A DNA stretch of 10,864 nucleotides from a virus. The stretch lies in UHGV virus genome UHGV-1747598. One strand, 5' to 3'. Both the position numbers and the translations under genes were made by a program. Shown here piece after piece: positions 1-10,864 of the stretch (within the stretch, counting starts at the first letter, position 1; each line of letters starts with the position of its first letter). Under the pieces are notes generated by a model. The model was not told the origin of the DNA. It worked only from the letters and a program-made list of their open reading frames with translations, and did no database searches.

Positions 1-1274
1 ACACTAACTTTTTTCATACTGATTGGCAGACGCGCCAGCTACTGATAGCAGGCGGTGCGTTGCTGGCAATGACTGCAACGATTGGCTCGTTGTCGCTGGT
101 TATTGGGGTGCTTTACGGAAAGCTGGCCACCCTGCGTCTTGGTTTTGACATTCTTACCCGGTCAATGAATGTCGTCAGGGTGTTGCCTGCGCTGTGGGGA
201 ATGCTGACGGGTTCCGTTTCTTTGCTGGGAGGCGCTATCGGGGCGCTGTTCAGTCCGGTTGGATTGATTGCTGCTGCGTTTGTGGCTGCGGCGGTTCTCA
301 TCTGGAAATACTGGGAACCCATTAAGGCGTTTTATGCCGGGGTGTTCAACGGGATTATGGAAAGGCTGACCCCGTTGCGCGAAACCTTTGAACGGTTTGG
401 TCCTGTTTTTGACGCAATCGGAAGCGGGATCAGCCAGGTGTTTAACTGGTTTAAATCGCTGCTGTCACCGATGGAGTCCAGCAAGGAAACGCTGGATAAA
501 TGTACCAGTGCTGGCGAGATATTCGGTAACGTTCTTGGCGGTGCGTTACAACTTGTTCTGACACCTGCAAAAATGCTACTGGATACGCTGGCGTGGATAC
601 TTGAAAAACTCGGTGTGCTTCCGGATGAAGCGGAAAGGGCGAGAAAGAAAATCGAAGACGCACAGCGTGCGGCCATTCTTCAGGACAAGGTTGCTCTGTT
701 TCAGGGAGACATTGCGAAAATCAATCCGCCGAAGTCTGCGGAAAATGGCAATGGCACCGGAGGCGATAAACCCAAAGACAACAAACCGCTCACAGACAGC
801 AATACCGGCACGCTACGCAGACTCAGCAAAATTGCTGATAACACAGGTAAGCTGGTTGATGAGACAAAAAAACGTATTGGCCCCGGCGATATTGTCTTTA
901 AGAACCTGCCCCGCGCACTTGCTGTTCGTGGGGAGTGGCAGGAGCGGAAGATTGCACAGGTCAGTAAGCCTGCCCCCGCAATGAATATCACCCCCGTGGT
1001 CCCGGCTCCGCTGCCTCCGGCGCTGGTCCCTGTTGTTGCGGCCAGCTCCCGCCCGGTGGCGGAGGCCATACGATCTCCAGTGGCATCAGTTCCTGTAACT
1101 TCCCGTAACCGGGAGCCTGTTGCCTCCGGATTTGGTGGTGAAATTCATGTTCATCTGCATAACGTTGTTACGCAGAATCCCCGCGAACTGGCGAAACTGG
1201 TCGGTGAAATGGTCAGGGCAGAAATGGAACGGCGCGCCCGTGCCGGGCGTGGCAGTTTTTACGATAAAGATTGA
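1..1274 (+). CDS. Tail tape measure protein, C-terminal portion (5' end lies outside the window)
   Basis: The frame is open from the window start (codons in register with nt 3) to the stop at 1272-1274, so the listed start at 60 is not the real start. The product has hydrophobic Gly/Ala-rich segments and a Pro/Ala/Val-rich low-complexity C-terminus. It sits directly upstream of a gpU-like gene (GAGGAG RBS at 1274-1279), the position of gpT in P2-type tail modules. Confidence 0.55.
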   Translation, partial: TNFFHTDWQTRQLLIAGGALLAMTATIGSLSLVIGVLYGKLATLRLGFDILTRSMNVVRVLPALWGMLTGSVSLLGGAIGALFSPVGLIAAAFVAAAVLIWKYWEPIKAFYAGVFNGIMERLTPLRETFERFGPVFDAIGSGISQVFNWFKSLLSPMESSKETLDKCTSAGEIFGNVLGGALQLVLTPAKMLLDTLAWILEKLGVLPDEAERARKKIEDAQRAAILQDKVALFQGDIAKINPPKSAENGNGTGGDKPKDNKPLTDSNTGTLRRLSKIADNTGKLVDETKKRIGPGDIVFKNLPRALAVRGEWQERKIAQVSKPAPAMNITPVVPAPLPPALVPVVAASSRPVAEAIRSPVASVPVTSRNREPVASGFGGEIHVHLHNVVTQNPRELAKLVGEMVRAEMERRARAGRGSFYDKD

Positions 1275-1280
1275 GGAGTC

Positions 1281-1775
1281 ATGGCCATGATGATGATCTA
1301 CGGCATGTTTGTTTTTGAGCTGCGTACGTTGCCGCATCAGCAGTTACAGCAAAACAAAAGCTGGCGGCATGTGAAAAATGAACGCGTTAACCGTTCAGCA
1401 AGCTGGCAGTATATCGGGGCAGGCGATGATCGCATCGTTCTTTCTGGTGTGCTTTATCCTGAAATTACAGGTGGCGAAGTGTCGCTTTCGTTGCTGACCA
1501 CGCAGGCATATACAGGACGCCCCTGGCCTCTGATTGATGGTGTCGGGCAGATTTACGGCATGTATGTCCTGACCGGAACGAATACGACCCGCTCCGAGTT
1601 TGATCGCTACGGTAAGGCGAAAAAGATAGAATTTTCACTGACTCTTGAACGCTGTGATGAGGATTTGCGGGAGCGCCTGCAATCCTCATCGTTCAGTGAT
1701 ATGCTGTCCGGCTTCAAAGATAAGGTCACATCATCCCTTAACAGCGCGGCCAGCTCCGTTAAAGGGCTGTTTTGA
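1281..1775 (+). CDS. Phage tail protein U-like (P2 gpU family)
   Basis: 164-aa ORF with ATG at 1281 preceded by GAGGAG. The N-terminal GMFVFE..TLPHQ motif and the GVLYPE.TGG motif match my recollection of the P2 gpU family. Size and position after the tape measure fit. Confidence 0.7.
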   Translation: MAMMMIYGMFVFELRTLPHQQLQQNKSWRHVKNERVNRSASWQYIGAGDDRIVLSGVLYPEITGGEVSLSLLTTQAYTGRPWPLIDGVGQIYGMYVLTGTNTTRSEFDRYGKAKKIEFSLTLERCDEDLRERLQSSSFSDMLSGFKDKVTSSLNSAASSVKGLF

Positions 1776-1782
1776 TTAACGC

Positions 1783-1812
1783 AAAACCGCTAATGGTCAG
1801 ATTAGCGGTTTT
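1783..1812. terminator. Bidirectional intrinsic terminator hairpin between convergent gpU and invertase genes
   Basis: Perfect inverted repeat AAAACCGCTAAT (1783-1794), loop GGTCAG, ATTAGCGGTTTT (1801-1812), followed by a T-rich tract on + and with the A-run giving a U-run on the - transcript. It lies 8 nt after the gpU stop and overlaps the invertase stop codon (1802-1804). Confidence 0.55.
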
Positions 1813-2401
1813 CATTTTCCTGAGTCTGCCTGGTTGTTTCTTCAGCCTGTATATCGCCTACAGGGTGATAACGATAAATCGTCGATATGCCGATGTCGTA
1901 AATGATCGCCAGTTGTTTCCTGTCATGACCGTTTTTAATCAGCCTCGCTATTTGCTCGTGTTGTTCTTTTGTCAACTTCGGGCGACGTCCGCCAATGCGT
2001 CCTTGTGCGCGTGCTGCTGCCAGCCCGGCCAGTGTACGCTCTACAATTAATTCACGTTCCATTTCGGCTAAAGCCCCCATGACGTGAAAAAAGAAACGCC
2101 CCATGGGTGTTGATGTGTCAATGCTGTCCGTCAGACTACGGAAATTAACACCTTTTTCCCGCAATTCCTCAATAAGCGTGATCAGGTGTTTCATACTTCT
2201 GCCCAGTCTGTCCAGCTTCCAGACAACCAGCGTATCTCCTTCTGATAGCGTTCTGAGCAGTTTTTTCAATCCCGGTCTGGCTGATTTCGTTCCGCTGATT
2301 TTATCTTCAAAAATCAGTTCACATCCTGCGCAGTTCAGTGCATTGCGTTGTAAATCCGTGTTCTGGTCATTTGTTGACACACGAATATAGCCAATTTGCA
2401 T
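1802..2401 (-). CDS. Serine DNA invertase, Hin/Gin/Pin/Cin (Din) family
   Basis: The 199-aa product begins MQIGYIRVSTNDQNTDLQRNAL and contains VVWKLDRLGRS, SLTDSIDTS, GRFFFHVMGALAEMERELIVERT and a C-terminal HTH (GISTIYRY), all hallmark motifs I recall from Hin/Gin. The true start is the ATG at 2401-2399, preceded by AGAGGA; the 264-aa ORF in the track is read-through into the upstream crossover-site region. Confidence 0.9.
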   Translation of the reverse strand: MQIGYIRVSTNDQNTDLQRNALNCAGCELIFEDKISGTKSARPGLKKLLRTLSEGDTLVVWKLDRLGRSMKHLITLIEELREKGVNFRSLTDSIDTSTPMGRFFFHVMGALAEMERELIVERTLAGLAAARAQGRIGGRRPKLTKEQHEQIARLIKNGHDRKQLAIIYDIGISTIYRYHPVGDIQAEETTRQTQENENR

Positions 2402-2455
2402 AAAAAACATCCTCTTTGTTTCGTGAAAAATACATAGTTGGTATAGGTAGGGATA

Positions 2456-2481
2456 AAGACGAAAACGTTGGTTTGGGGGAA
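2456..2481 (+). other. Invertase crossover site 1 (hix/gix-like, 12-2-12)
   Basis: AAGACGAAAACG-TT-GGTTTGGGGGAA. It resembles the gix/hix architecture (..AAACC-NN-GGTTT..) as I recall it. It lies about 55 bp upstream of the invertase start, at the 5' boundary of cassette A. Confidence 0.6.
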
Positions 2482-2901
2482 GGCTCTGCGCTGCCCGTTG
2501 GTGTGCCCGTTCCATGGCCCTCAGCCACGCTGCCAACGGGGTGGCTGAAATGTAACGGCGCAGCATTTTCTTCTGAAATGTACCCCAATCTGGCAAAGGC
2601 CTACCCCGCCAATAAATTACCGGATTTACGGGGCGAATTTATTCGTGGCTGGGATGATGGACGTGGTGTGGACAATGGGAGAGCATTATTAAGCAGCCAA
2701 GAGGCTACAAATTTTTCTCAGCGTGCCGGAAATATAGGCGATGGTGCGGGCCACGCAATTAATTTTCATGATGGCATAGTCGGAAATCAGCCAGGATTTT
2801 CACGATTTAATTTCACCAGTAACTCTGTAGGCGATGGTATAAATTATGTTGCTGTCAGGCCGCGAAATATCGCATTTAATTACATCGTAAGGGCAGCATG
2901 A
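2470..2901 (+). CDS. Silent alternative tail-fiber C-terminal cassette A (no start codon of its own)
   Basis: The translation GSALPVGVPVPWPSATLPTGWLKCNGAAFSSEMYPNLAKAYPANKLPDLRGEFIRGWDDGRGVD...RPRNIAFNYIVRAA is near-identical at both ends to the C-terminus of the H tail fiber, with a different central block. It begins at crossover site 1 and ends with TGA at 2899-2901. Confidence 0.7.
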   Translation, partial: GLGEGSALPVGVPVPWPSATLPTGWLKCNGAAFSSEMYPNLAKAYPANKLPDLRGEFIRGWDDGRGVDNGRALLSSQEATNFSQRAGNIGDGAGHAINFHDGIVGNQPGFSRFNFTSNSVGDGINYVAVRPRNIAFNYIVRAA

Positions 2902-2920
2902 AAACGTTGGTTTGGGGAAA
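2895..2920 (+). other. Invertase crossover site 2 (hix/gix-like)
   Basis: AGCATGAAAACG-TT-GGTTTGGGGAAA. The stop codon of cassette A (TGA) is embedded in its left half-site. Same orientation as site 1. Confidence 0.6.
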
Positions 2921-3388
2921 GGCTCGGCGCTGCCCGTTGGTGTACCTGTTCCGTGGCCCTCAGCTACTCCACCAACGGGCTGGCTGAAATGCAACGGCGC
3001 AGCATTTTCTTCTGAAAAGTATCCCAAACTGGCACAGGCTTACCCCGCGAACAAATTACCGGATTTACGCGGTGAATTTATCCGTGGCTGGGATGATGGG
3101 CGAGGAATTGATGCAGCACGCGCTTTATTGAGCATTCAAACCGGGATGTTGGAAAAACACCGCCATATTGTTGTAGCTAACGATAGATATGACACAAAGG
3201 ATGAATGGGAGTTGGCCACGATTTTCAAAAAAACATATACACAAGGCAGGGGGCTTGATGCCACAAATACAGGAGGGAGTTTGATTCCATCACCAACGCT
3301 TCATTCACGAGGAAGTATTGGTAACACAGGTGGTAGTGAAACCCGCCCCCGCAATATTGCATTTAACTATATCGTGAGGGCGTCTTAG
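2909..3388 (+). CDS. Silent alternative tail-fiber C-terminal cassette B
   Basis: It has the same conserved 5' block (GSALPVGVPVPWPSATPPTGWLKCNGAAFSSEKYPKLAQAYPANKLPDLRGEFIRGWDDGRGID) and the same 3' motif (RPRNIAFNYIVRAS), with a distinct central region. Stop TAG at 3386-3388. Confidence 0.7.
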   Translation, partial: GLGKGSALPVGVPVPWPSATPPTGWLKCNGAAFSSEKYPKLAQAYPANKLPDLRGEFIRGWDDGRGIDAARALLSIQTGMLEKHRHIVVANDRYDTKDEWELATIFKKTYTQGRGLDATNTGGSLIPSPTLHSRGSIGNTGGSETRPRNIAFNYIVRAS

Positions 3389-3394
3389 TTATAT

Positions 3395-4006
3395 TCAACT
3401 GGCTGCTGCCAGTGGTATTTCCGGCCAGTTGATATCTGGTGCCATGTTTATATCCATTGCGTTCAGTGCGTCTATATAATCCAGCACGGCGTTAAGCCGG
3501 GTGGTTTCTGCCTGCGTCAACTTCCGCCCGGCCTGCAACTTCAACTGAATCAGACTTACGGAAGCCATTGCCGCATCAGCCAGTGACTGGCGCTTGGTTT
3601 CTGCCGCTTCTACTGCGGCACCATGTTGTGCCTCAGTATCTGTCACCCATTTTTCACCATCCCATTTATCGTATGGTGTTAACGGGGCGATAGTGGTTGT
3701 ATTTTTCGGGTAGTCACCCAGCGTCGTGATTTCTTCGGTGTTTCCCGTGTCAGTGTTATAGACGGTTTCACCACGATGGTCTGGCGCATACTCCCATGAA
3801 CTTAAATTCTCCGAACGGCGGATAGCATAGCCCGCTTTATGTGCGCCCGGGGCATCTAAACAGGAATTTGCCGGAATACCGACACCCACAGCAAGATATT
3901 CAGTTGATTCGGAAATATATTCCCGTGTTTCACCATCATAGTTATAAACGACGATGTTTCCTGCCTGTACGGCAATAAGGTCATCATTTAATATCGCGTT
4001 ATTCAT
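3395..4006 (-). CDS. Tail fiber assembly protein (Tfa chaperone)
   Basis: The 203-aa product (MNNAILNDDL...VYNYDGETREYIS...YAPDHRGETVYNTDTG...PYDKWDGEKWVTDTEAQH...) looks like the Tfa proteins encoded next to tail fiber genes in lambdoid, Mu and P2-like phages. Its ATG overlaps the stop of cassette C as TAATG. Confidence 0.8.
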   Translation of the reverse strand: MNNAILNDDLIAVQAGNIVVYNYDGETREYISESTEYLAVGVGIPANSCLDAPGAHKAGYAIRRSENLSSWEYAPDHRGETVYNTDTGNTEEITTLGDYPKNTTTIAPLTPYDKWDGEKWVTDTEAQHGAAVEAAETKRQSLADAAMASVSLIQLKLQAGRKLTQAETTRLNAVLDYIDALNAMDINMAPDINWPEIPLAAAS

Positions 4007-4467
4007 TATGCGGTTCTCACAATATAATTGAAGGCAATATTGCGTGGGCGGCTTTCATTCCCATCTGAGGATTCCGTTCTGTATTGACTGGTAAATCTAC
4101 CGTTAATTGCACCTTGCCAGACGGCGTTATCTGTCGACAACAGACTATCCCCTCCTTTGTCATTTGGCACCAGTACCGTGTTATCCCACGCGTCCCATGA
4201 CCGAATATTATGATAATGACTTCCTGTTAACCACCCCTGCATGCTTAAGATGCCCCTTCTGGCATCCACCCCGCGCCCATCATCCCAGCCACGGATAAAT
4301 TCACCGCGTAAATCCGGTAATTTATTGGTGGGGTAGGCTTTTGCCAGTTTGGGGTACATTTCAGAAGAAAATGCTGCACCGTTACATTTCAGCCAGCCCG
4401 TTGGTGGTGTTGCTGAGGGCCACGGAACGGGCACACCAACGGGCAGTGCAGAACCTTCTCCTAAACC
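4006..4467 (-). CDS. Silent alternative tail-fiber C-terminal cassette C, translationally coupled to tfa
   Basis: Translation NVGLGEGSALPVGVPVPWPSATPPTGWLKCNGAAFSSEMYPKLAKAYPTNKLPDLRGEFIRGWDDGRGVD...RPRNIAFNYIVRTA. It follows the stop of the active cassette and crossover site 3, and has no independent start. Confidence 0.7.
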   Translation of the reverse strand, partial: GLGEGSALPVGVPVPWPSATPPTGWLKCNGAAFSSEMYPKLAKAYPTNKLPDLRGEFIRGWDDGRGVDARRGILSMQGWLTGSHYHNIRSWDAWDNTVLVPNDKGGDSLLSTDNAVWQGAINGRFTSQYRTESSDGNESRPRNIAFNYIVRTA

Positions 4468-4481
4468 AACGTTTTCATGCT
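4456..4481 (-). other. Invertase crossover site 3 (hix/gix-like)
   Basis: On the - strand this reads AGCATGAAAACG-TT-GGTTTAGGAGAA. The stop codon of the active H gene (TGA, 4477-4475) is embedded in its left half. It is inverted relative to sites 1 and 2. Confidence 0.6.
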
Positions 4482-6115
4482 GCCCTTACGATGTAATTAA
4501 ATGCAACGTTGCGAGGGCGAGTTTCTGTACCTACATTTCCACTAATTTTACCAAACCGTTTTACATTACGAGAGCTAATGGCTCGTAGTGAGGAAGGCAC
4601 CTTTAAACCGGGTTCGTCTGTTTTAACTATTCCCCCGTCCCCGTATGTAGCCAGTATTCCAGGGTTTACTCCTTCCCGTGTACTTCCCGCGGCAAGTCCA
4701 TCCCCGGTCCATAATTCCATATAGTGTGCATGATCCAAAATTGTGTGTGGCTGCCAATTAAGCAAAGCGCGGCCAGCATCCACCCCGCGCCCATCATCCC
4801 AGCCGCGAATAAATTCTCCCCGTAAATCCGGTAATTTATTGGCGGGGTAGGCCTTTGCCAGATTGGGGTACATTTCAGAAGAAAATGCTGCTCCGTTACA
4901 TTTCAGCCAGCCCGTTGGTGGTGTGGCTGAGGGCCATGGAACAGGCACACCAACGGGCAGTGCAGAGCCTCCCCCCAAACCAAGGTAATCAAGAACTCCC
5001 TGAGTGCTGGTTTTACCAAGAATGGCACGTCCAACACTTGTCAACGCGGTTAACGCGGCACGATCTGCCCCTGTAAAATATGGGAGTTTATCTGCTGATG
5101 TAGCAAGCTCCGCCAGCGCCGTCAGGGTGGCATCCTTCGGTTGCTTACCCGCAAGCGCGTTAGTCATGGTGGTCGCAAAATTCGGGTCATTGCCCAGCGC
5201 CGCAGCCAGTTCGTTCAGCGTGTTCAGTGCATCAGGTGACGAATCTACAAGTGCGGCAATCGCGGCCATAACGAAAGCCGTGCTTGCGATCTGGGTACTA
5301 TTAGCCCCCTGTGGCGCTGTTGGTGTTGTTGGCGTTCCGGTCAGTGCCGGGCTGTTTAATGGTGCTTTCTTGTTCGTTTCATCCATTACCGCCTTAACAG
5401 CTTTTGGTGTCGCTGCCAGCGTTTCAGACGTGCTGTTCGTGGCGCTACTGAGCTGAACAATCCCTTTTTGTGTAGTGGTGGCGTTCCGGGCGGTATATTT
5501 CCCGTTAGCCAGGTCATATGCAGCCTTAACCGCTTTCGGTGTTGCGGCCAGTGTTTCTGATTCACTGTTAATTGCACTGCTTAACTGAGTAAAACCTTTT
5601 ACGGTCAGCGAGGCGTCCGGGTGACGTCGTGATTGTTCGTGCTCTGATATTTTATCATCCACATATTTGCGGGTTGCCAGAACCACAGACGGGTCGATTT
5701 TCAGCGTGATGGCTTCGGTGTTCGTGACAACCAGAATCATGCGGATAGTCTGGGTGCGTCCACTGCCTTCCTGCAACTGCGGTTTGTACGTTTCCGGGCA
5801 GTTTGCCACCGCAATGAGTACACCTTCATCATCATAAAGACCAATCTCACGGATCCAGAATCCTCCCTCGTTTTCAGGGATGATTTGCTCCGCAATAATC
5901 TGGCTCTGATTGTTAGGGTCAACACTCAGAAGATTCAGCGGTGCAATGCGTTTCTGGTTAATCAGTTTTGTTTGTGCAGGGTCTGGTGTTGGTAACACAC
6001 CATTTGCATCACCAACGGCCATTTGCGTCAGATTCAGCTTACTGCCGAGCATCGTCGCGTTAGCCAGTCGTGCCGCGCCCTGATTAGTCAGAATGGCGTA
6101 GTATTTCACTGTCAT
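4475..6115 (-). CDS. Tail fiber protein H (P2 gpH-like constant N-terminal region fused to the currently active C-terminal cassette D, about 4475-4982)
   Basis: The 546-aa product starts MTVKYYAILTNQGAARLANA...MAVGDANG and contains EHEQSRRHPDASLTVKGFTQLSSA and the twice-repeated SETLAATPKAVKA motif, which match my memory of P2 gpH. The C-terminal 166 aa carry the shared cassette blocks. Its ATG overlaps the gpI stop as ATGA. Confidence 0.85.
   Translation of the reverse strand: MTVKYYAILTNQGAARLANATMLGSKLNLTQMAVGDANGVLPTPDPAQTKLINQKRIAPLNLLSVDPNNQSQIIAEQIIPENEGGFWIREIGLYDDEGVLIAVANCPETYKPQLQEGSGRTQTIRMILVVTNTEAITLKIDPSVVLATRKYVDDKISEHEQSRRHPDASLTVKGFTQLSSAINSESETLAATPKAVKAAYDLANGKYTARNATTTQKGIVQLSSATNSTSETLAATPKAVKAVMDETNKKAPLNSPALTGTPTTPTAPQGANSTQIASTAFVMAAIAALVDSSPDALNTLNELAAALGNDPNFATTMTNALAGKQPKDATLTALAELATSADKLPYFTGADRAALTALTSVGRAILGKTSTQGVLDYLGLGGGSALPVGVPVPWPSATPPTGWLKCNGAAFSSEMYPNLAKAYPANKLPDLRGEFIRGWDDGRGVDAGRALLNWQPHTILDHAHYMELWTGDGLAAGSTREGVNPGILATYGDGGIVKTDEPGLKVPSSLRAISSRNVKRFGKISGNVGTETRPRNVAFNYIVRAA
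4970..4995 (-). other. Invertase crossover site 4 (hix/gix-like), inside the tail fiber gene at the constant/variable junction
   Basis: On the - strand this reads TTCTTGATTACC-TT-GGTTTGGGGGGA, encoding ...LDYLGLGG.... The central TT occupies the same codon positions as in cassette sites 1-3. Confidence 0.6.
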
Positions 6116-7612: not shown

Positions 7613-7963
7613 TTACTCCCTCAGCGTGATGGTTAATTCAACATTCTGCATGGTCTGCATGACAGTGCCCGACAGAGTCACCCCGGCGCGGCCTCCTGCC
7701 TTCCAGACAACGTCGATGGCGTCCAGGGCAATGCGGGGTTCCCATCGTGTCAGCGCAATCACGGCAGCACTCATGCATTGCAGACGAGTTGTGTTATTCA
7801 TGGGTTCGTCAATCAAATCAGGCACAAGGCTGCCATATTCCCGTCGCATAACCCGGCTTGCCAGCGGGGTGATCAGGATGTCCCTGACTGACTGTTTCAG
7901 GTGCTCCATATCGTTCAGGTTTCCCGTCCCGTCCGGATTCATTCCTGTGTAGCGGGTTGTCAC
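7613..7963 (-). CDS. Baseplate wedge protein W (GPW/gp25 family)
   Basis: 116 aa with the conserved order V-W-J. Its start overlaps the gpV stop by 4 nt. Confidence 0.8.
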   Translation of the reverse strand: MTTRYTGMNPDGTGNLNDMEHLKQSVRDILITPLASRVMRREYGSLVPDLIDEPMNNTTRLQCMSAAVIALTRWEPRIALDAIDVVWKAGGRAGVTLSGTVMQTMQNVELTITLRE

Positions 7964-8541
7964 TGCGGGCCTCCTGTCGAATCGCTGCCGCCTTTCACGC
8001 CACCGTGTTTATGCGTATGCACTGTGATGCCGTTTGAGGTGAAGTTGCCGCCGCTGTGCGTGATATTGCCGCTCATCTTTCCTCCTTTTGTGACGTCAAG
8101 CGTCGCCGTTCTCAGAAGGTTTGTGCATTCCACGACGGGCGTGTCCAGTTTCACGCTGACGGATGCCTGTAAAGTGGCCGTTTTCATGCCGCTGGCGCTC
8201 AGTGCGCCAGCGTCTGCGTCGTAGCGGAACACCGCGCCGTCCGGCGCGCTGATCACGATTTCTTTCAGGCTTTTGCCGGGGGCCGGACTGGCATCACTCC
8301 ACAGGCTGCCAATTATCATGGCGGTTTCCGGGTTGCCGCCAATGCAGGCAATTACCACCTGTTCGCCTGGTGATGGCGGCAGCCACACATTGAAGGCTCC
8401 CGCGCGCGTGGTGTTCCAGCGCAGCCAGCCTGTTTCCAGTTCGCCGCTGCGAACGCGCACGCGCCAGGACTTCTCATCAACTTCAGAGATGATCCCGGTG
8501 CGGATGATATTGCTCAGCAGTCGCATGAGTTCTGCGCTCAC
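7960..8541 (-). CDS. Baseplate spike/assembly protein V (P2 gpV-like)
   Basis: 193-aa product with an N-terminal OB-fold-like region and a Gly-rich C-terminus (GGKMSGNITHSGGNFTSNGITVHTHKHGG), typical of gpV spikes. Its start overlaps the upstream gene stop by 4 nt. Confidence 0.8.
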   Translation of the reverse strand: MSAELMRLLSNIIRTGIISEVDEKSWRVRVRSGELETGWLRWNTTRAGAFNVWLPPSPGEQVVIACIGGNPETAMIIGSLWSDASPAPGKSLKEIVISAPDGAVFRYDADAGALSASGMKTATLQASVSVKLDTPVVECTNLLRTATLDVTKGGKMSGNITHSGGNFTSNGITVHTHKHGGVKGGSDSTGGPQ

Positions 8542-9173
8542 CGTACAGCCTCCGCAATCCGGCCCAGCACCGTGTTATAAATCAGGCGCTCATCTGCCTG
8601 GCTGATACCCAGCAGCTCACGTACCGGGTAATCGGTGAAAATGCCCGGCGCAACCTGATCGCGCTCACCGAACTGATGAACGCGGGCAATACGTGCGGCC
8701 ACGCCGCTGTAACCCACCGTCACACCGGAAGCATCTGCACGGGCTTTCAGGTAGCGGGCGGTGCGCAGTTTTACAAACATGGGGACGCGCTTTGTGCTGT
8801 CCTGGTTGATGCGCCGGGTGCGTATTTCCAGAAAACGGTCGATGTCATCCCGGTAAAACGTGCGGATATTGTTTTTATCCTCATCCCACCCGGTAATGGT
8901 TCGCCCGTATTTCCCCGTGTCGTGATGCCAGTTTTTCAGCGTGCGTGCTTCGTTATTCCAGATAAAGCGAATGCGCTCCTGTATCCGGGTTACGCGGCGT
9001 CTGCGTGGTGTCCATTCGGTCCCGTCCGGCGCTTTTTGTGATCGGATACGTGCCTGCTGGGCGCGACGTAAATCCTGTGCCAGCTTTCTGGCGATGTTAT
9101 TGATGGCCTGCTGATTCAGGCTGTCGCGGATAGCCTCAAAGGTTTCATCCACGCTGGTGAATGCCTTATCCAT
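8538..9173 (-). CDS. Phage virion morphogenesis / tail completion protein (gpS-like)
   Basis: It occupies the gpS position between the R and V homologs. The likely start is the ATG at 9173, which overlaps the gpR stop (ATGGATAA). The basic, Arg-rich product fits my impression of the virion-morphogenesis family. Confidence 0.55.
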   Translation of the reverse strand: MDKAFTSVDETFEAIRDSLNQQAINNIARKLAQDLRRAQQARIRSQKAPDGTEWTPRRRRVTRIQERIRFIWNNEARTLKNWHHDTGKYGRTITGWDEDKNNIRTFYRDDIDRFLEIRTRRINQDSTKRVPMFVKLRTARYLKARADASGVTVGYSGVAARIARVHQFGERDQVAPGIFTDYPVRELLGISQADERLIYNTVLGRIAEAVR

Positions 9174-9633
9174 CGCTTTCACCCCACGTCACATCCTGGA
9201 ATACATGCGACCAGTCGCCTTCGGAAGAGGGCAGACGGGGTTTTGGCTCCGGCAGGTGTTCTGCCTGCGGTGTGCCCTGACTGTTGCGCGTGATGCGAAC
9301 GCGTTCCCGCAGGGGGAGCGTAAACAGGAGATCGGCGCTGTCATCGTCATTGATAACGGCAGAAAATTTGATGTCCTGATTACGCTCCGGATTGAGCAAC
9401 AACTGTGGCTGATTTTCGGATAACCACGCCAGCAGCGGCAGCGTGAGGTCGTCCAGCTCTCCGGCGTAATCCATGACAAACATCACCATCTGATAGCGGT
9501 AAACAAACGAGGGCGCTTCTCCGGTCGTTTCAATGTTGCCGCTCTCCACGAAAATGGTGAATTTCTCGGGATTAGCCTGGCACCACCGACACCCATGAAG
9601 CATGGACTCTCGCAGACTGTTTGTCTTAAGCAT
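9166..9633 (-). CDS. Tail completion protein R (P2 gpR-like)
   Basis: 155 aa, the size of P2 gpR. N-terminal MLK..SLR and the central LPLLAWL.ENQP motif match my recollection of gpR. GGAGAG RBS upstream. Confidence 0.65.
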   Translation of the reverse strand: MLKTNSLRESMLHGCRWCQANPEKFTIFVESGNIETTGEAPSFVYRYQMVMFVMDYAGELDDLTLPLLAWLSENQPQLLLNPERNQDIKFSAVINDDDSADLLFTLPLRERVRITRNSQGTPQAEHLPEPKPRLPSSEGDWSHVFQDVTWGESDG

Positions 9634-9656
9634 CTGTTTTGCTCTCCTGCTCTTCC

Positions 9657-10864
9657 TTATGCTGCGGGATTATTGATTTCCAGCACCAGGCTGCCGATAT
9701 CGACGCCGTACGCGGCATTTTTAGTGATATCAGTTAACGTCAGCGCATTCAGCCCCAGTGTCAGACTGTCTTTTATGACCTGGAATGCCGGGCCAGCCAC
9801 TCCATTCAGTTTCGGAGTAACCGTGGCACTGCCGGCGGTGAACACCAGCTCCAGCGTCTGCCAGTCGTTACTGTAATTCCCGAACTCGCCCAACTTTGTG
9901 TTTCCTGCTTTCTTGTGATGCATCAGATTCAGTTTGCCGTCTGTGGTCTGGGTGAAGAACGACATCAGGAACGGGTTACCAGTCCCGGTCATCGCCACGA
10001 CGTCAGGTAACGCTACATCGGTATACAGATAAATTCCCAGACCGAACTGATTGTTGGTCAGTGCGCCTGACAGTCGAAACTTACAGCTCAGTCTGCCACC
10101 CCGTGTCAGCAGGGAGACTGCGTCATCCACCGGATGCATCAGGGACCAGGTTTTATTGCTCTGCTTGGTAACCTTAAACACACCATCTTCCAGCGCAACA
10201 CTGCCGCCGGTGATGGTCCAGCCCTGCGCAGCAGCCTCTCCGGCTGTCGGCAGCAGGGAGACTGTACGAACGGATGTGTCACCATCAGACGGCCCCGATG
10301 GCGTGTCGCCGCCGGGCGAGGGTTTAATCTCCGGTGCGGTACCGCTGATGAAGGCGCTGGTTCGACCAACTGCGTTCAGAATAGCGGTTGCCAGGCGATC
10401 CGAAATAATGCCCCTGCGCGCCCATGAACTGAAATGTGTCGGACGATTTGACGATACCCAATTACCATTACTACGGGATTGCGCGCCGTAATAACCTGCA
10501 TCAGCAATATCCGGGTCTTCTGCCGGTAAGTTGGTGGGCGTGTTGTTGCCGTTACCGTCGGTCATGAACGGCACAAAGAAAACGTTGTCGCTCTCCCTGT
10601 TTTTGTACGCGCCGTAGACGGAGTCATACTGTGTGCCGTATGTGTTTTTCCAGTAATACGTCGTGTCGCCACAAATCCACGGTACAACTGCAGCACTGCC
10701 GCCATGGCACTGCGCGTTAAATCCGGAAAGGTCAGTACGGAACTGCTTCAGCATGGCCGTGAACAGGTCCGGTTGCTGTGCGTAGGTGGCAGCGCTCATG
10801 TCAAATTCGCCCTGCATCCAGCACACCGCCAGCAACACATTTTTCGGGTTCTTCTGTAATGCAG
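9657..10864 (-). CDS. Partial CDS (N-terminus outside window): C-terminal part of a NanS-like sialate O-acetylesterase domain fused to a beta-rich, lectin-like C-terminal domain
   Basis: The frame is open to the window edge. Motifs CWMQGEFD, PWICGDTTYYWK, PAEDPD and HFSSWARRGIISDR resemble what I recall of E. coli NanS and prophage NanS-p esterases. The C-terminal ~200 aa are Gly/Thr-rich. It ends 23 bp upstream of gpR in the same orientation. Confidence 0.4.
   Translation of the reverse strand, partial: ALQKNPKNVLLAVCWMQGEFDMSAATYAQQPDLFTAMLKQFRTDLSGFNAQCHGGSAAVVPWICGDTTYYWKNTYGTQYDSVYGAYKNRESDNVFFVPFMTDGNGNNTPTNLPAEDPDIADAGYYGAQSRSNGNWVSSNRPTHFSSWARRGIISDRLATAILNAVGRTSAFISGTAPEIKPSPGGDTPSGPSDGDTSVRTVSLLPTAGEAAAQGWTITGGSVALEDGVFKVTKQSNKTWSLMHPVDDAVSLLTRGGRLSCKFRLSGALTNNQFGLGIYLYTDVALPDVVAMTGTGNPFLMSFFTQTTDGKLNLMHHKKAGNTKLGEFGNYSNDWQTLELVFTAGSATVTPKLNGVAGPAFQVIKDSLTLGLNALTLTDITKNAAYGVDIGSLVLEINNPAA

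Follow-up and report, generated by a model that had tools for sequence, protein, structure and literature searches.

The window examined here, the whole 10,864-nucleotide stretch of UHGV virus genome UHGV-1747598, covers the region of the tail genes in a P2-like Escherichia coli prophage. Directly upstream of its tail completion gene R lies an open reading frame (ORF) that a first-pass annotation, made from the letters alone, read as a homologue of the sialate O-acetylesterases NanS and NanS-p with a lectin-like C-terminal domain. Why would a gene for a glycan esterase stand among the tail genes of such a phage, and what might its product do? Our analyses indicate that the ORF is the 3′ part of a gene for a predicted prophage-type sialate O-acetylesterase (NanS-p family). 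The gene is a 1.9-kb insertion located exactly between the spanin gene lysC and R, and it does not replace the lysis genes. We consider it likely that the encoded protein is a cargo enzyme of the P2-like prophage that would be expressed with the late operon, released at lysis and active in the de-O-acetylation of mucin sialic acids.

The ORF occupies the minus strand and is open from the window edge (10864/10862) to a TAA at 9659-9657, a length of 401 codons. Its coordinates, its strand, the orientation it shares with the tail genes and the 23-bp gap to gpR had all been given correctly in the first-pass annotation. The remaining 675 nt, at the 5′ end, fall outside the window; they would encode a DUF1737 domain and, with its GQSN serine, the first half of the SASA domain. 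The parts of the gene that fall inside the window are as follows (pLDDT, predicted local distance difference test).

9657-10864, minus strand: nanS-p-type sialate O-acetylesterase gene, 3′ two-thirds (residues 226-626 of 626, plus the TAA)
10374-10862, minus strand: C-terminal half of the SASA/NanS catalytic domain (residues 226-388), from the alignment with the NanS structure 3pt5
10806-10814, minus strand: QGE motif (residues 242-244), SGNH block III by position, within a WMQGEFD stretch aligned to NanS
10425-10445, minus strand: RPTHFSS block, in which the His368 codon (10434-10436) is aligned with the His of RSSHFSS in 3pt5
10248-10373, minus strand: interdomain linker (residues 389-430), Ser/Gly/Pro/Thr-rich by composition and predicted to be disordered (pLDDT <50 at 400-421)
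9660-10247, minus strand: C-terminal lectin-like jelly-roll domain (DUF6645), a putative carbohydrate-binding module, from Pfam, the structure 6yp6 and a model

The complete gene was recovered from E. coli chromosomes, which match window positions 9100-10864 at 99.7-99.9% identity; of 5426 complete E. coli genomes, 373 contain at least 80% of this segment. One of the matching copies, in strain 266917_2 (locus L001), comprises 1881 nt and encodes 626 amino acids (L001:15558-17438, WP_032207317.1). This protein is annotated merely as a ‘DUF6645 domain-containing protein’, and its residues 226-626 show no difference from the 401 residues encoded in the window. Pfam searches with the full-length protein identified DUF1737 at residues 4-53 (30.5 bits) and DUF6645 at residues 477-587 (70.1 bits), both above their cut-offs, as well as a significant match to SASA (PF03629) at residues 75-271 (49.3 bits; cut-off, 24.8). 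The protein therefore has the three-module layout of NanS-p (DUF1737, SASA and C-terminal domain), and a PHROG 143 match spans it from end to end, while an NCBIfam scan of the same protein returned no meaningful match. The window fragment alone scored 13 bits against SASA (E=0.077), which is under the cut-off because the window includes no more than the C-terminal half of that domain. Many database entries of the NanS-p-type family are partial.

The upstream catalytic domain that the first-pass annotation had anticipated is present in the full-length gene, and its GQSN serine is in place. Residues 69-388 match NanS/YjhS (PDB 3pt5) with E=1.9e-123. The GQSN at residues 80-83 (Ser82), outside the window, is aligned to the GQSN of 3pt5, and the WMQGEFD block is conserved between the window protein and NanS. 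Ser82, His368 and two residues of QGE, the G and the E, do not vary among 41 family members. We take the corresponding NanS residues to be Ser19 and His301, a numbering that comes from our own count in the 3pt5 alignment. The RPTH sequence is the block IV variant recorded for Stx2a prophage 86 (PMC10462455). AlphaFold2 (AF2) was used to model P0007, a P2-borne homologue that shares 93% identity with the window fragment (mean pLDDT of the model, 74.6), and Foldseek aligned this model with 3pt5 at a template modelling score (TMt) of 0.89. The chromosomal NanS of E. coli K-12 (YjhS) is homologous to the catalytic domain over its whole length, with about 56-70% identity, and shares the GQSN Ser and the (R)xxHFSS His with the P2-borne protein. 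In contrast, NanS consists of a single domain (~326 amino acids), with neither a DUF1737 nor a lectin-like module; it is a member of the sialic-acid catabolic regulon and is not under phage late control.

The C-terminal region had been described in the first-pass annotation as a ~200-aa Gly/Thr-rich beta-type domain, and this is a fair description of a segment that contains 12% L, 11% T, 11% G and 10% A. Within the window fragment, these ~200 residues score 71 bits against Pfam DUF6645. Residues 431-623 match 6yp6 (‘NanS-p’, the C-terminal domain of vb_24B_21 from phage phi24B) with E=3.9e-30. In the P0007 model the domain has a pLDDT of about 85-90, and Foldseek matched it first to 6yp6, a jelly roll (TMt 0.84; root-mean-square deviation 2.2 Å). 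The subsequent matches were to legume (L-type) lectins, to ERGIC-53/VIP36/Emp46p and to the sialic-acid-binding lectin domain of V. cholerae sialidase, and the term ‘lectin-like C-terminal domain’ is therefore well founded. None of the sequence and profile matches of the ORF and its domains is due to chance. In previous work the NanS-p C-terminal domain was proposed as a carbohydrate-binding module, and the aromatic residues Y510, Y515, Y540 and F611 of vb_24B_21 were proposed as its sugar site (PMC10462455). The P2-borne residues aligned to this site, itself a literature proposal, are F498, Y503, F528 and L594.

In L001 and in an O25b:H4 sequence type 131 (ST131) genome the gene order is X, holin, M15 endolysin, LysB-like (DUF2570), LysC, esterase, R, S, V, W, J, I, H, G. 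The first-pass annotation had supposed that an esterase stands here in place of the lysis genes of P2; this was wrong, as the holin, M15 endolysin, LysB-like and LysC genes are all found just upstream. In P2 itself lysC is adjacent to and overlaps R. The filled lysC-esterase-R site was found in 373-376 of the 5426 complete E. coli genomes (~375, or ~7%). With a chimeric query in which the sequences on the lysC and R sides were fused, an empty lysC-R junction was contiguous in 687 E. coli genomes, the best matches being ~90% identical. In the alignment of filled and empty sites, homology stops ~50 nt 5′ of the esterase start and restarts ~20 nt 5′ of the R start; no direct repeats or other insertion scars are evident in this junction alignment. 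The esterase start overlaps the stop codon of lysC in a 4-nt ATGA, and the gene has a GC content of 55% compared with 57% for its flanks. On the 3′ side the neighbours are:

9634-9656, minus strand: 23-nt spacer from the esterase stop to the gpR start, with a GGAG ribosome-binding site at 9644-9647
9166-9633, minus strand: gpR tail completion (tail terminator) gene, which comes next in this late operon (Pfam P2_Phage_GpR, 132.5 bits, E=1.4e-38)
8538-9182, minus strand: gpS-like virion morphogenesis (tail completion) gene, overlapping R (Pfam Phage_tail_S, E=4e-27)
7960-8541, minus strand: gpV gene (Phage_base_V, Phage_spike and Apex)

Beyond gpV, the ORFs were read as W, J, I, the tail fibre gene H and an assembly protein gene on the basis of position and the L001 annotation. 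The GGAG sits 10 nt 5′ of the R start codon. The spacer that contains it yielded no terminator-like site in our scan and is too short for a terminator, and promoter-like and terminator-like matches in the 4 kb around the esterase gene were no more frequent than expected from shuffled sequence. The gene is embedded in an essential late operon, and transcripts of R and S would have to run through it. With neither a promoter nor a terminator of its own, the gene probably encodes a late-operon cargo enzyme that would be either released at lysis or carried by the virion.

The word ‘cargo’ had already been chosen in the first-pass annotation, and it is a reasonable one given that the lysC-R junction is empty in close P2-like relatives of this prophage. 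Other cargo genes or ‘morons’ of P2-like phages (P2 orf30, Z/fun, tin, old and the cdt-V operon) are likewise non-essential and are present in some close P2-like prophages and absent from others. P2 orf30 differs in being a separate opposite-strand unit between a terminator and the V promoter, whereas the esterase gene is translationally coupled inside the late operon.

Is the gene still functional? The prophage of strain 266917_2 has a truncated D gene (801 nt), and this, together with the partial database entries mentioned above, might suggest a decaying, functionless remnant of recombination with a lambdoid prophage. However, the ORF is intact and is annotated as a complete coding sequence in hundreds of genomes, the catalytic residues are conserved, and the ST131 copy resides in a prophage with a complete gene set that includes a full-length D. 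Further, the ratio of nonsynonymous to synonymous substitution rates (dN/dS) is 0.13-0.25 in all domains, and 0.09-0.16 for the N-terminal domain when P2 lineages are compared with each other. All domains, including DUF1737, are under purifying selection. On the strength of the dN/dS values and the intact ORF we rejected the pseudogene reading, which we consider highly improbable.

Relatives of the protein are found chiefly in other phages. A relative is encoded in 353 records of a phage collection, almost all of which are Shiga toxin (Stx)-converting or other lambdoid phages. The best full-length matches are to Stx1a phages, H-19B, YYZ-2008 and phage 434, with ~79% amino-acid and ~86% DNA identity. 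The record of the classical lambdoid phage 434 (OL657226.1:43635-45306) carries a gene for a SASA-family esterase, with ~85% DNA identity to the P2-borne gene, in its ‘434B nonhomology’ region. The lambdoid NanS-p proteins (L0105/z1466 of 933W; vb_24B_21, which is gp84 of phi24B; gp42 of YYZ-2008; and that of phage 434) share the DUF1737, SASA and DUF6645 architecture. They contain the same SGNH block variants, RPTH included, and, as in the P2-borne protein, no signal peptide is evident. Full-length identity to the Stx1-phage alleles is 79%, and some lambdoid alleles reach 94-97% in SASA and the C-terminal domain. Lambdoid nanS-p genes also lie beside the lysis cassette in the late transcript, which makes the position of the P2-borne gene less unexpected than the first-pass annotation had held. 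There are also differences. The position is 3′ of the spanins and 5′ of tail gene R, compared with between stx/Q and holin in the lambdoids; the carrier is a P2-like myovirus prophage; and DUF1737 is only ~35% identical and has a 4-residue insertion. We found no paper on nanS-p in P2-like phages or Peduoviridae in the literature searched, which left out most subscription journals and so gives weak evidence of absence, and a 2026 survey of 5945 P2-like genomes makes no mention of esterase, sialic, SASA or NanS.

The NanS-p enzymes encoded by prophages of EDL933 and O104:H4 are active esterases on 5-N-acetyl-9-O-acetylneuraminic acid (Neu5,9Ac2); they sustain growth on Neu5,9Ac2 and de-O-acetylate mucin glycans (PMC8065619). 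Every NanS-p enzyme that has been assayed is active on free Neu5,9Ac2 as well as on mucin sialoglycans, and few late genes are induced as strongly as nanS-p (PMC8065619). By analogy with the lambdoid enzymes, for which it has been shown (PMC8065619), esterase activity on Neu5,9Ac2 and O-acetylated mucin sialoglycans is predicted for the P2-borne allele. We propose that the gene would be transcribed solely with the Ogr-dependent late operon that also supplies the lysis and tail completion functions. No signal peptide is obvious by eye, without the use of a predictor, and the N-terminus is a DUF1737 fold with no long hydrophobic stretch; the protein would therefore meet its substrate upon lysis of the induced cell. 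Once outside the cell, it may take 9-O-acetyl groups off the sialic acids of mucin glycans, with the lectin-like module serving in targeting. The freed N-acetylneuraminic acid (Neu5Ac) could feed surviving sibling lysogens, as has been argued for the NanS-p of Stx phages (PMC8065619), and particles to which the protein is attached by its DUF1737 might possibly be helped to deal with mucus.

Another potential role, raised for NanS-p in a review (PMC8065619), is the de-O-acetylation of bacterial O-antigen or capsule, such as O-acetylated polysialic acid, which could aid adsorption or the release of progeny, or alter competitors. The first-pass annotation had likewise suggested the modification of host or competitor surface glycans, and here the documented NanS-p substrates, the 9-O-acetylated sialic acids of mucin (PMC8065619), have to be set apart from an action on bacterial surfaces that is putative. 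The gene lies beside tail genes and would be co-expressed with virion genes, and the C-terminal domain varies between alleles (38-97% identity) in the manner of receptor-binding modules. However, the catalytic domain is very near to NanS, the sialate 9-O-acetylesterase of sialic-acid catabolism, and the substrates on which the tested enzymes act are free Neu5,9Ac2 and mucin sialoglycans. The Pfam scan of the full-length protein revealed no tail-fibre or tailspike-like attachment domain, and the same SASA and C-terminal module occurs across prophages that differ in tail type and tail-fibre genes. We consider it improbable that the enzyme acts on bacterial rather than host glycans.

Several points count against a soluble, lysis-released mucin esterase. 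Activity, expression and localisation of the P2-borne allele are all predicted, and its catalytic serine and DUF1737, which lie outside the window, are ascribed to it from copies that are at least 99.7% identical. The promoter scan was a crude consensus search, and low-level expression in the lysogen is possible. The proposed sugar site keeps only three of its four aromatic residues, and identity to the crystallised C-terminal domain is no higher than ~38%; therefore, ligand specificity may differ. Lastly, the phi24B homologue is reported to be a processed capsid-decoration protein and not purely a soluble enzyme (bioRxiv 10.64898/2026.04.10.717836).

Although the finding is incremental, because the family, the fold and the likely chemistry were already known, a mucin esterase released from P2-like lysogens would be of wider interest. 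NanS-p has so far been discussed almost only for Shiga-toxin and other lambdoid prophages, in the context of lysogens that feed on O-acetylated mucin sialic acids. Since the cassette is present in ~375 of 5426 genomes, among them O25b:H4-ST131 bloodstream isolates, prophage-induced de-O-acetylation of gut-mucus sialoglycans would not be restricted to Shiga toxin-producing E. coli.

Domain-wise BLAST was performed over 130 retrieved homologous proteins. The N-terminal domain behaved differently from the rest of the protein, as can be seen from the amino-acid identities among the P2-borne protein and those of YYZ-2008 and Stx2 phage 1717:

DUF1737: P2-borne versus YYZ-2008, 35%; P2-borne versus 1717, 33%; YYZ-2008 versus 1717, 94%
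SASA: P2-borne versus YYZ-2008, 88%; P2-borne versus 1717, 71%; YYZ-2008 versus 1717, 71%
C-terminal domain: P2-borne versus YYZ-2008, 84%; P2-borne versus 1717, 38%; YYZ-2008 versus 1717, 37%

The P2 subtype of DUF1737 is 35-39% identical to the lambdoid type. Lambdoid alleles P0001-P0006 have a SASA and a C-terminal domain 94-97% identical to those of the window protein, combined with a lambdoid N-terminus. At the DNA level, homology to the lambdoid locus L009 (94.6%) extends from gene nucleotide 207 (codon ~69, where SASA starts) and breaks off no more than 2 nt short of the last base of the stop codon; neither the first 69 codons nor the two flanks show it. In the lambdoid comparison the synonymous substitution rate (dS) is ~0.1 in SASA and saturated in DUF1737. 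The P2 subtype starts with MTSKNFALITAM and has its 4-residue insertion ahead of a conserved TPW. Two further P2-like lineages, whose endolysin is different and of the lysozyme type, have the same subtype at 58-64% identity, and in both of these the esterase gene is located between the lysis genes and gpR. DNA encoding the P2-subtype N-terminus adjoins P2 lysC in 376 genomes, and none of the matches listed covered that part alone. In the phage collection the P2 subtype was found in three records only, all with P2-type (Peduoviridae-type) structural genes. A homologue search with the 68-aa N-terminal domain alone was uninformative, as it returned just 10 short partial proteins and no architectures. 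The combination of a P2-specific DUF1737 with lambdoid-like esterase and lectin modules (~95% DNA identity) appears to be undescribed in the searchable literature.

Does the N-terminal domain attach the enzyme to the phage particle? In phi24B, cryo-EM and proteomics are reported to show that DUF1737 hexamers of gp84 sit in the pore of central hexons of the T=9 capsid; binding is confined to the flat hexons on the 3-fold axis, and the protein is proteolytically processed (bioRxiv 10.64898/2026.04.10.717836). The P2-borne protein might by analogy be a virion component whose P2-specific DUF1737 anchors it to P2-type capsid hexons, so that the esterase and lectin modules are displayed on the particle and bind or modify glycans of mucus or cell surfaces, a reading that overlaps with that of a cargo enzyme. 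The domain order is the same as in gp84, and in the P2-borne protein DUF1737 exceeds the Pfam cut-off and has an aromatic residue at the presumed ‘tooth’: Trp45 is aligned with the Tyr of the lambdoid loop TPY, which is probably the ‘tooth’ residue of the phi24B preprint. The N-terminal module tracks phage type (P2 subtype, lambdoid subtype and the Mu-like module described below), and the breakpoint at codon ~69, the recurrence of the P2 subtype at the same position in the other P2-like lineages, its association with P2 lysC and with Peduoviridae-type records and the low dN/dS of the domain between P2 lineages are all consistent with an anchor.

On the other hand, the Pankowviruses YYZ-2008 and 1717 and the locus L009, which has a lambda-type terminase and portal, represent different head modules and yet have near-identical DUF1737 domains (94% between YYZ-2008 and 1717, and 96% between P0006, the L009 protein, and YYZ-2008). 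Among lambdoids, therefore, the domain goes with the late region around it, and an association with the capsid is not demonstrable, which argues against strict capsid specificity. Recombination within conserved SASA DNA would leave the 5′ end of the recipient in place, which explains the pattern equally well. The phi24B capsid is the T=9 shell of a lambdoid podovirus, in which binding is limited to the flat 3-fold hexons, and binding of the P2 subtype to a capsid is putative. The T=7 capsid of P2 is not known to have a flat hexon on a 3-fold axis, nor is P2 known to have a decoration protein. The SSP-containing linker motifs that the preprint gives for gp84 are not evident in the linkers of the P2-borne protein as read from its sequence, and the P0007 model's N-terminal domain has low AF2 confidence. 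A metagenomic contig that pairs a Mu-type N-terminus with lambdoid lysis genes (L014) also fits poorly with an anchor. Taking these observations together, we consider attachment to the P2 capsid rather unlikely. The broader idea, that NanS-p proteins carry at their N-terminus an exchangeable virion anchor specific to the type of phage (a lambdoid DUF1737, a P2-specific DUF1737 or the non-DUF1737 module of Mu-like phages) and that the esterase and lectin cassette is swapped freely between co-resident prophages, seems to us slightly less probable still. If it were true, P2-like phages in ~7% of complete E. coli genomes, including ST131, would show a mucin-sialoglycan esterase on a myovirus capsid for which no decoration protein is known. 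The DUF1737/SASA breakpoint and the phage-type N-termini nevertheless offer a handle on a question left open by the phi24B preprint, namely whether NanS-p is generally virion-anchored.

The phage record vB_EcoM-705R2, together with vB_EcoM-569R5, was at first taken as evidence that P2-like phages with nanS-p form virions. The former was rejected as evidence of particles, since it contains the host genes focA, pflB and dmsABC and is a partial prophage contig, not a packaged genome. In this record (ON470623.1, L013:1-11400), ~11 kb of host chromosome (ycaO, focA, pflB, dmsABC) lies 5′ of the P2-like integrase gene, and the sequence ends inside the esterase gene.

The Mu-like prophages encode a third version of the protein. 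In three of them (L010:6001-8049, L011:6001-8049 and L016:6001-8049) a 682-aa SASA and DUF6645 esterase carries an N-terminal module of ~110 amino acids that has no Pfam match and is not DUF1737, and its gene is located between a gin-like invertase and com/mom. On the 3.1-kb contig mentioned above (L014:144-2153), the Mu-type N-terminus is joined to a C-terminal domain 97% identical to that of the window, followed by genes for a lambdoid holin, DUF1327 and a lysozyme; the contig is either a true inter-family recombinant or an assembly chimera. Small DUF1378 genes are found 3′ of the gene for the esterase in lambdoid and Mu-like contexts and in one that is P2-like (L008:8046-8213; L010:8184-8656; L015:10084-10684; L016:8107-8567), and DUF826 genes occupy such a position in lambdoid and Mu-like contexts as well. 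This recurrence suggests a larger travelling cassette. In the window, neither DUF1378 nor DUF826 genes follow the esterase gene, and R is only 23 nt away.

Other features of the prophage are of a more general nature. The gpS-like protein has 211-214 amino acids, compared with 150 (453 nt) for gpS of P2; its best Phage_tail_S stretch comprises residues 124-206, and there is a second matched stretch for which we have no coordinates. The block of sheath, tube, E, E′, tape-measure and U genes is opposite in strand to H-G and D-ogr (window 60-1775; L001:2876-8461; L017:29230-34815), whereas in P2 all of these genes are co-oriented. As the inverted FI-U block is also present in the ST131 prophage with the full-length D, it is a feature of the lineage and not damage; no convincing pair of inverted repeats was found flanking it. 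Window positions 1800-4600 form a multi-cassette invertible tail-fibre region, with a gene for a resolvase-type recombinase inside the minus-strand ORF 1802-2596. Alternative C-terminal cassettes of the fibre, three in number and silent, are located at 2416-2901 (plus strand), 2912-3388 (plus strand) and 4006-4434 (minus strand), and they have a conserved 5′ block of ~240-280 nt in common with the expressed H gene (4475-6115, minus strand). The inverted repeats of this region, 279 and 235 nt in length, are 86-87% complementary, and the window has more fibre cassettes than the otherwise near-identical L001 locus.

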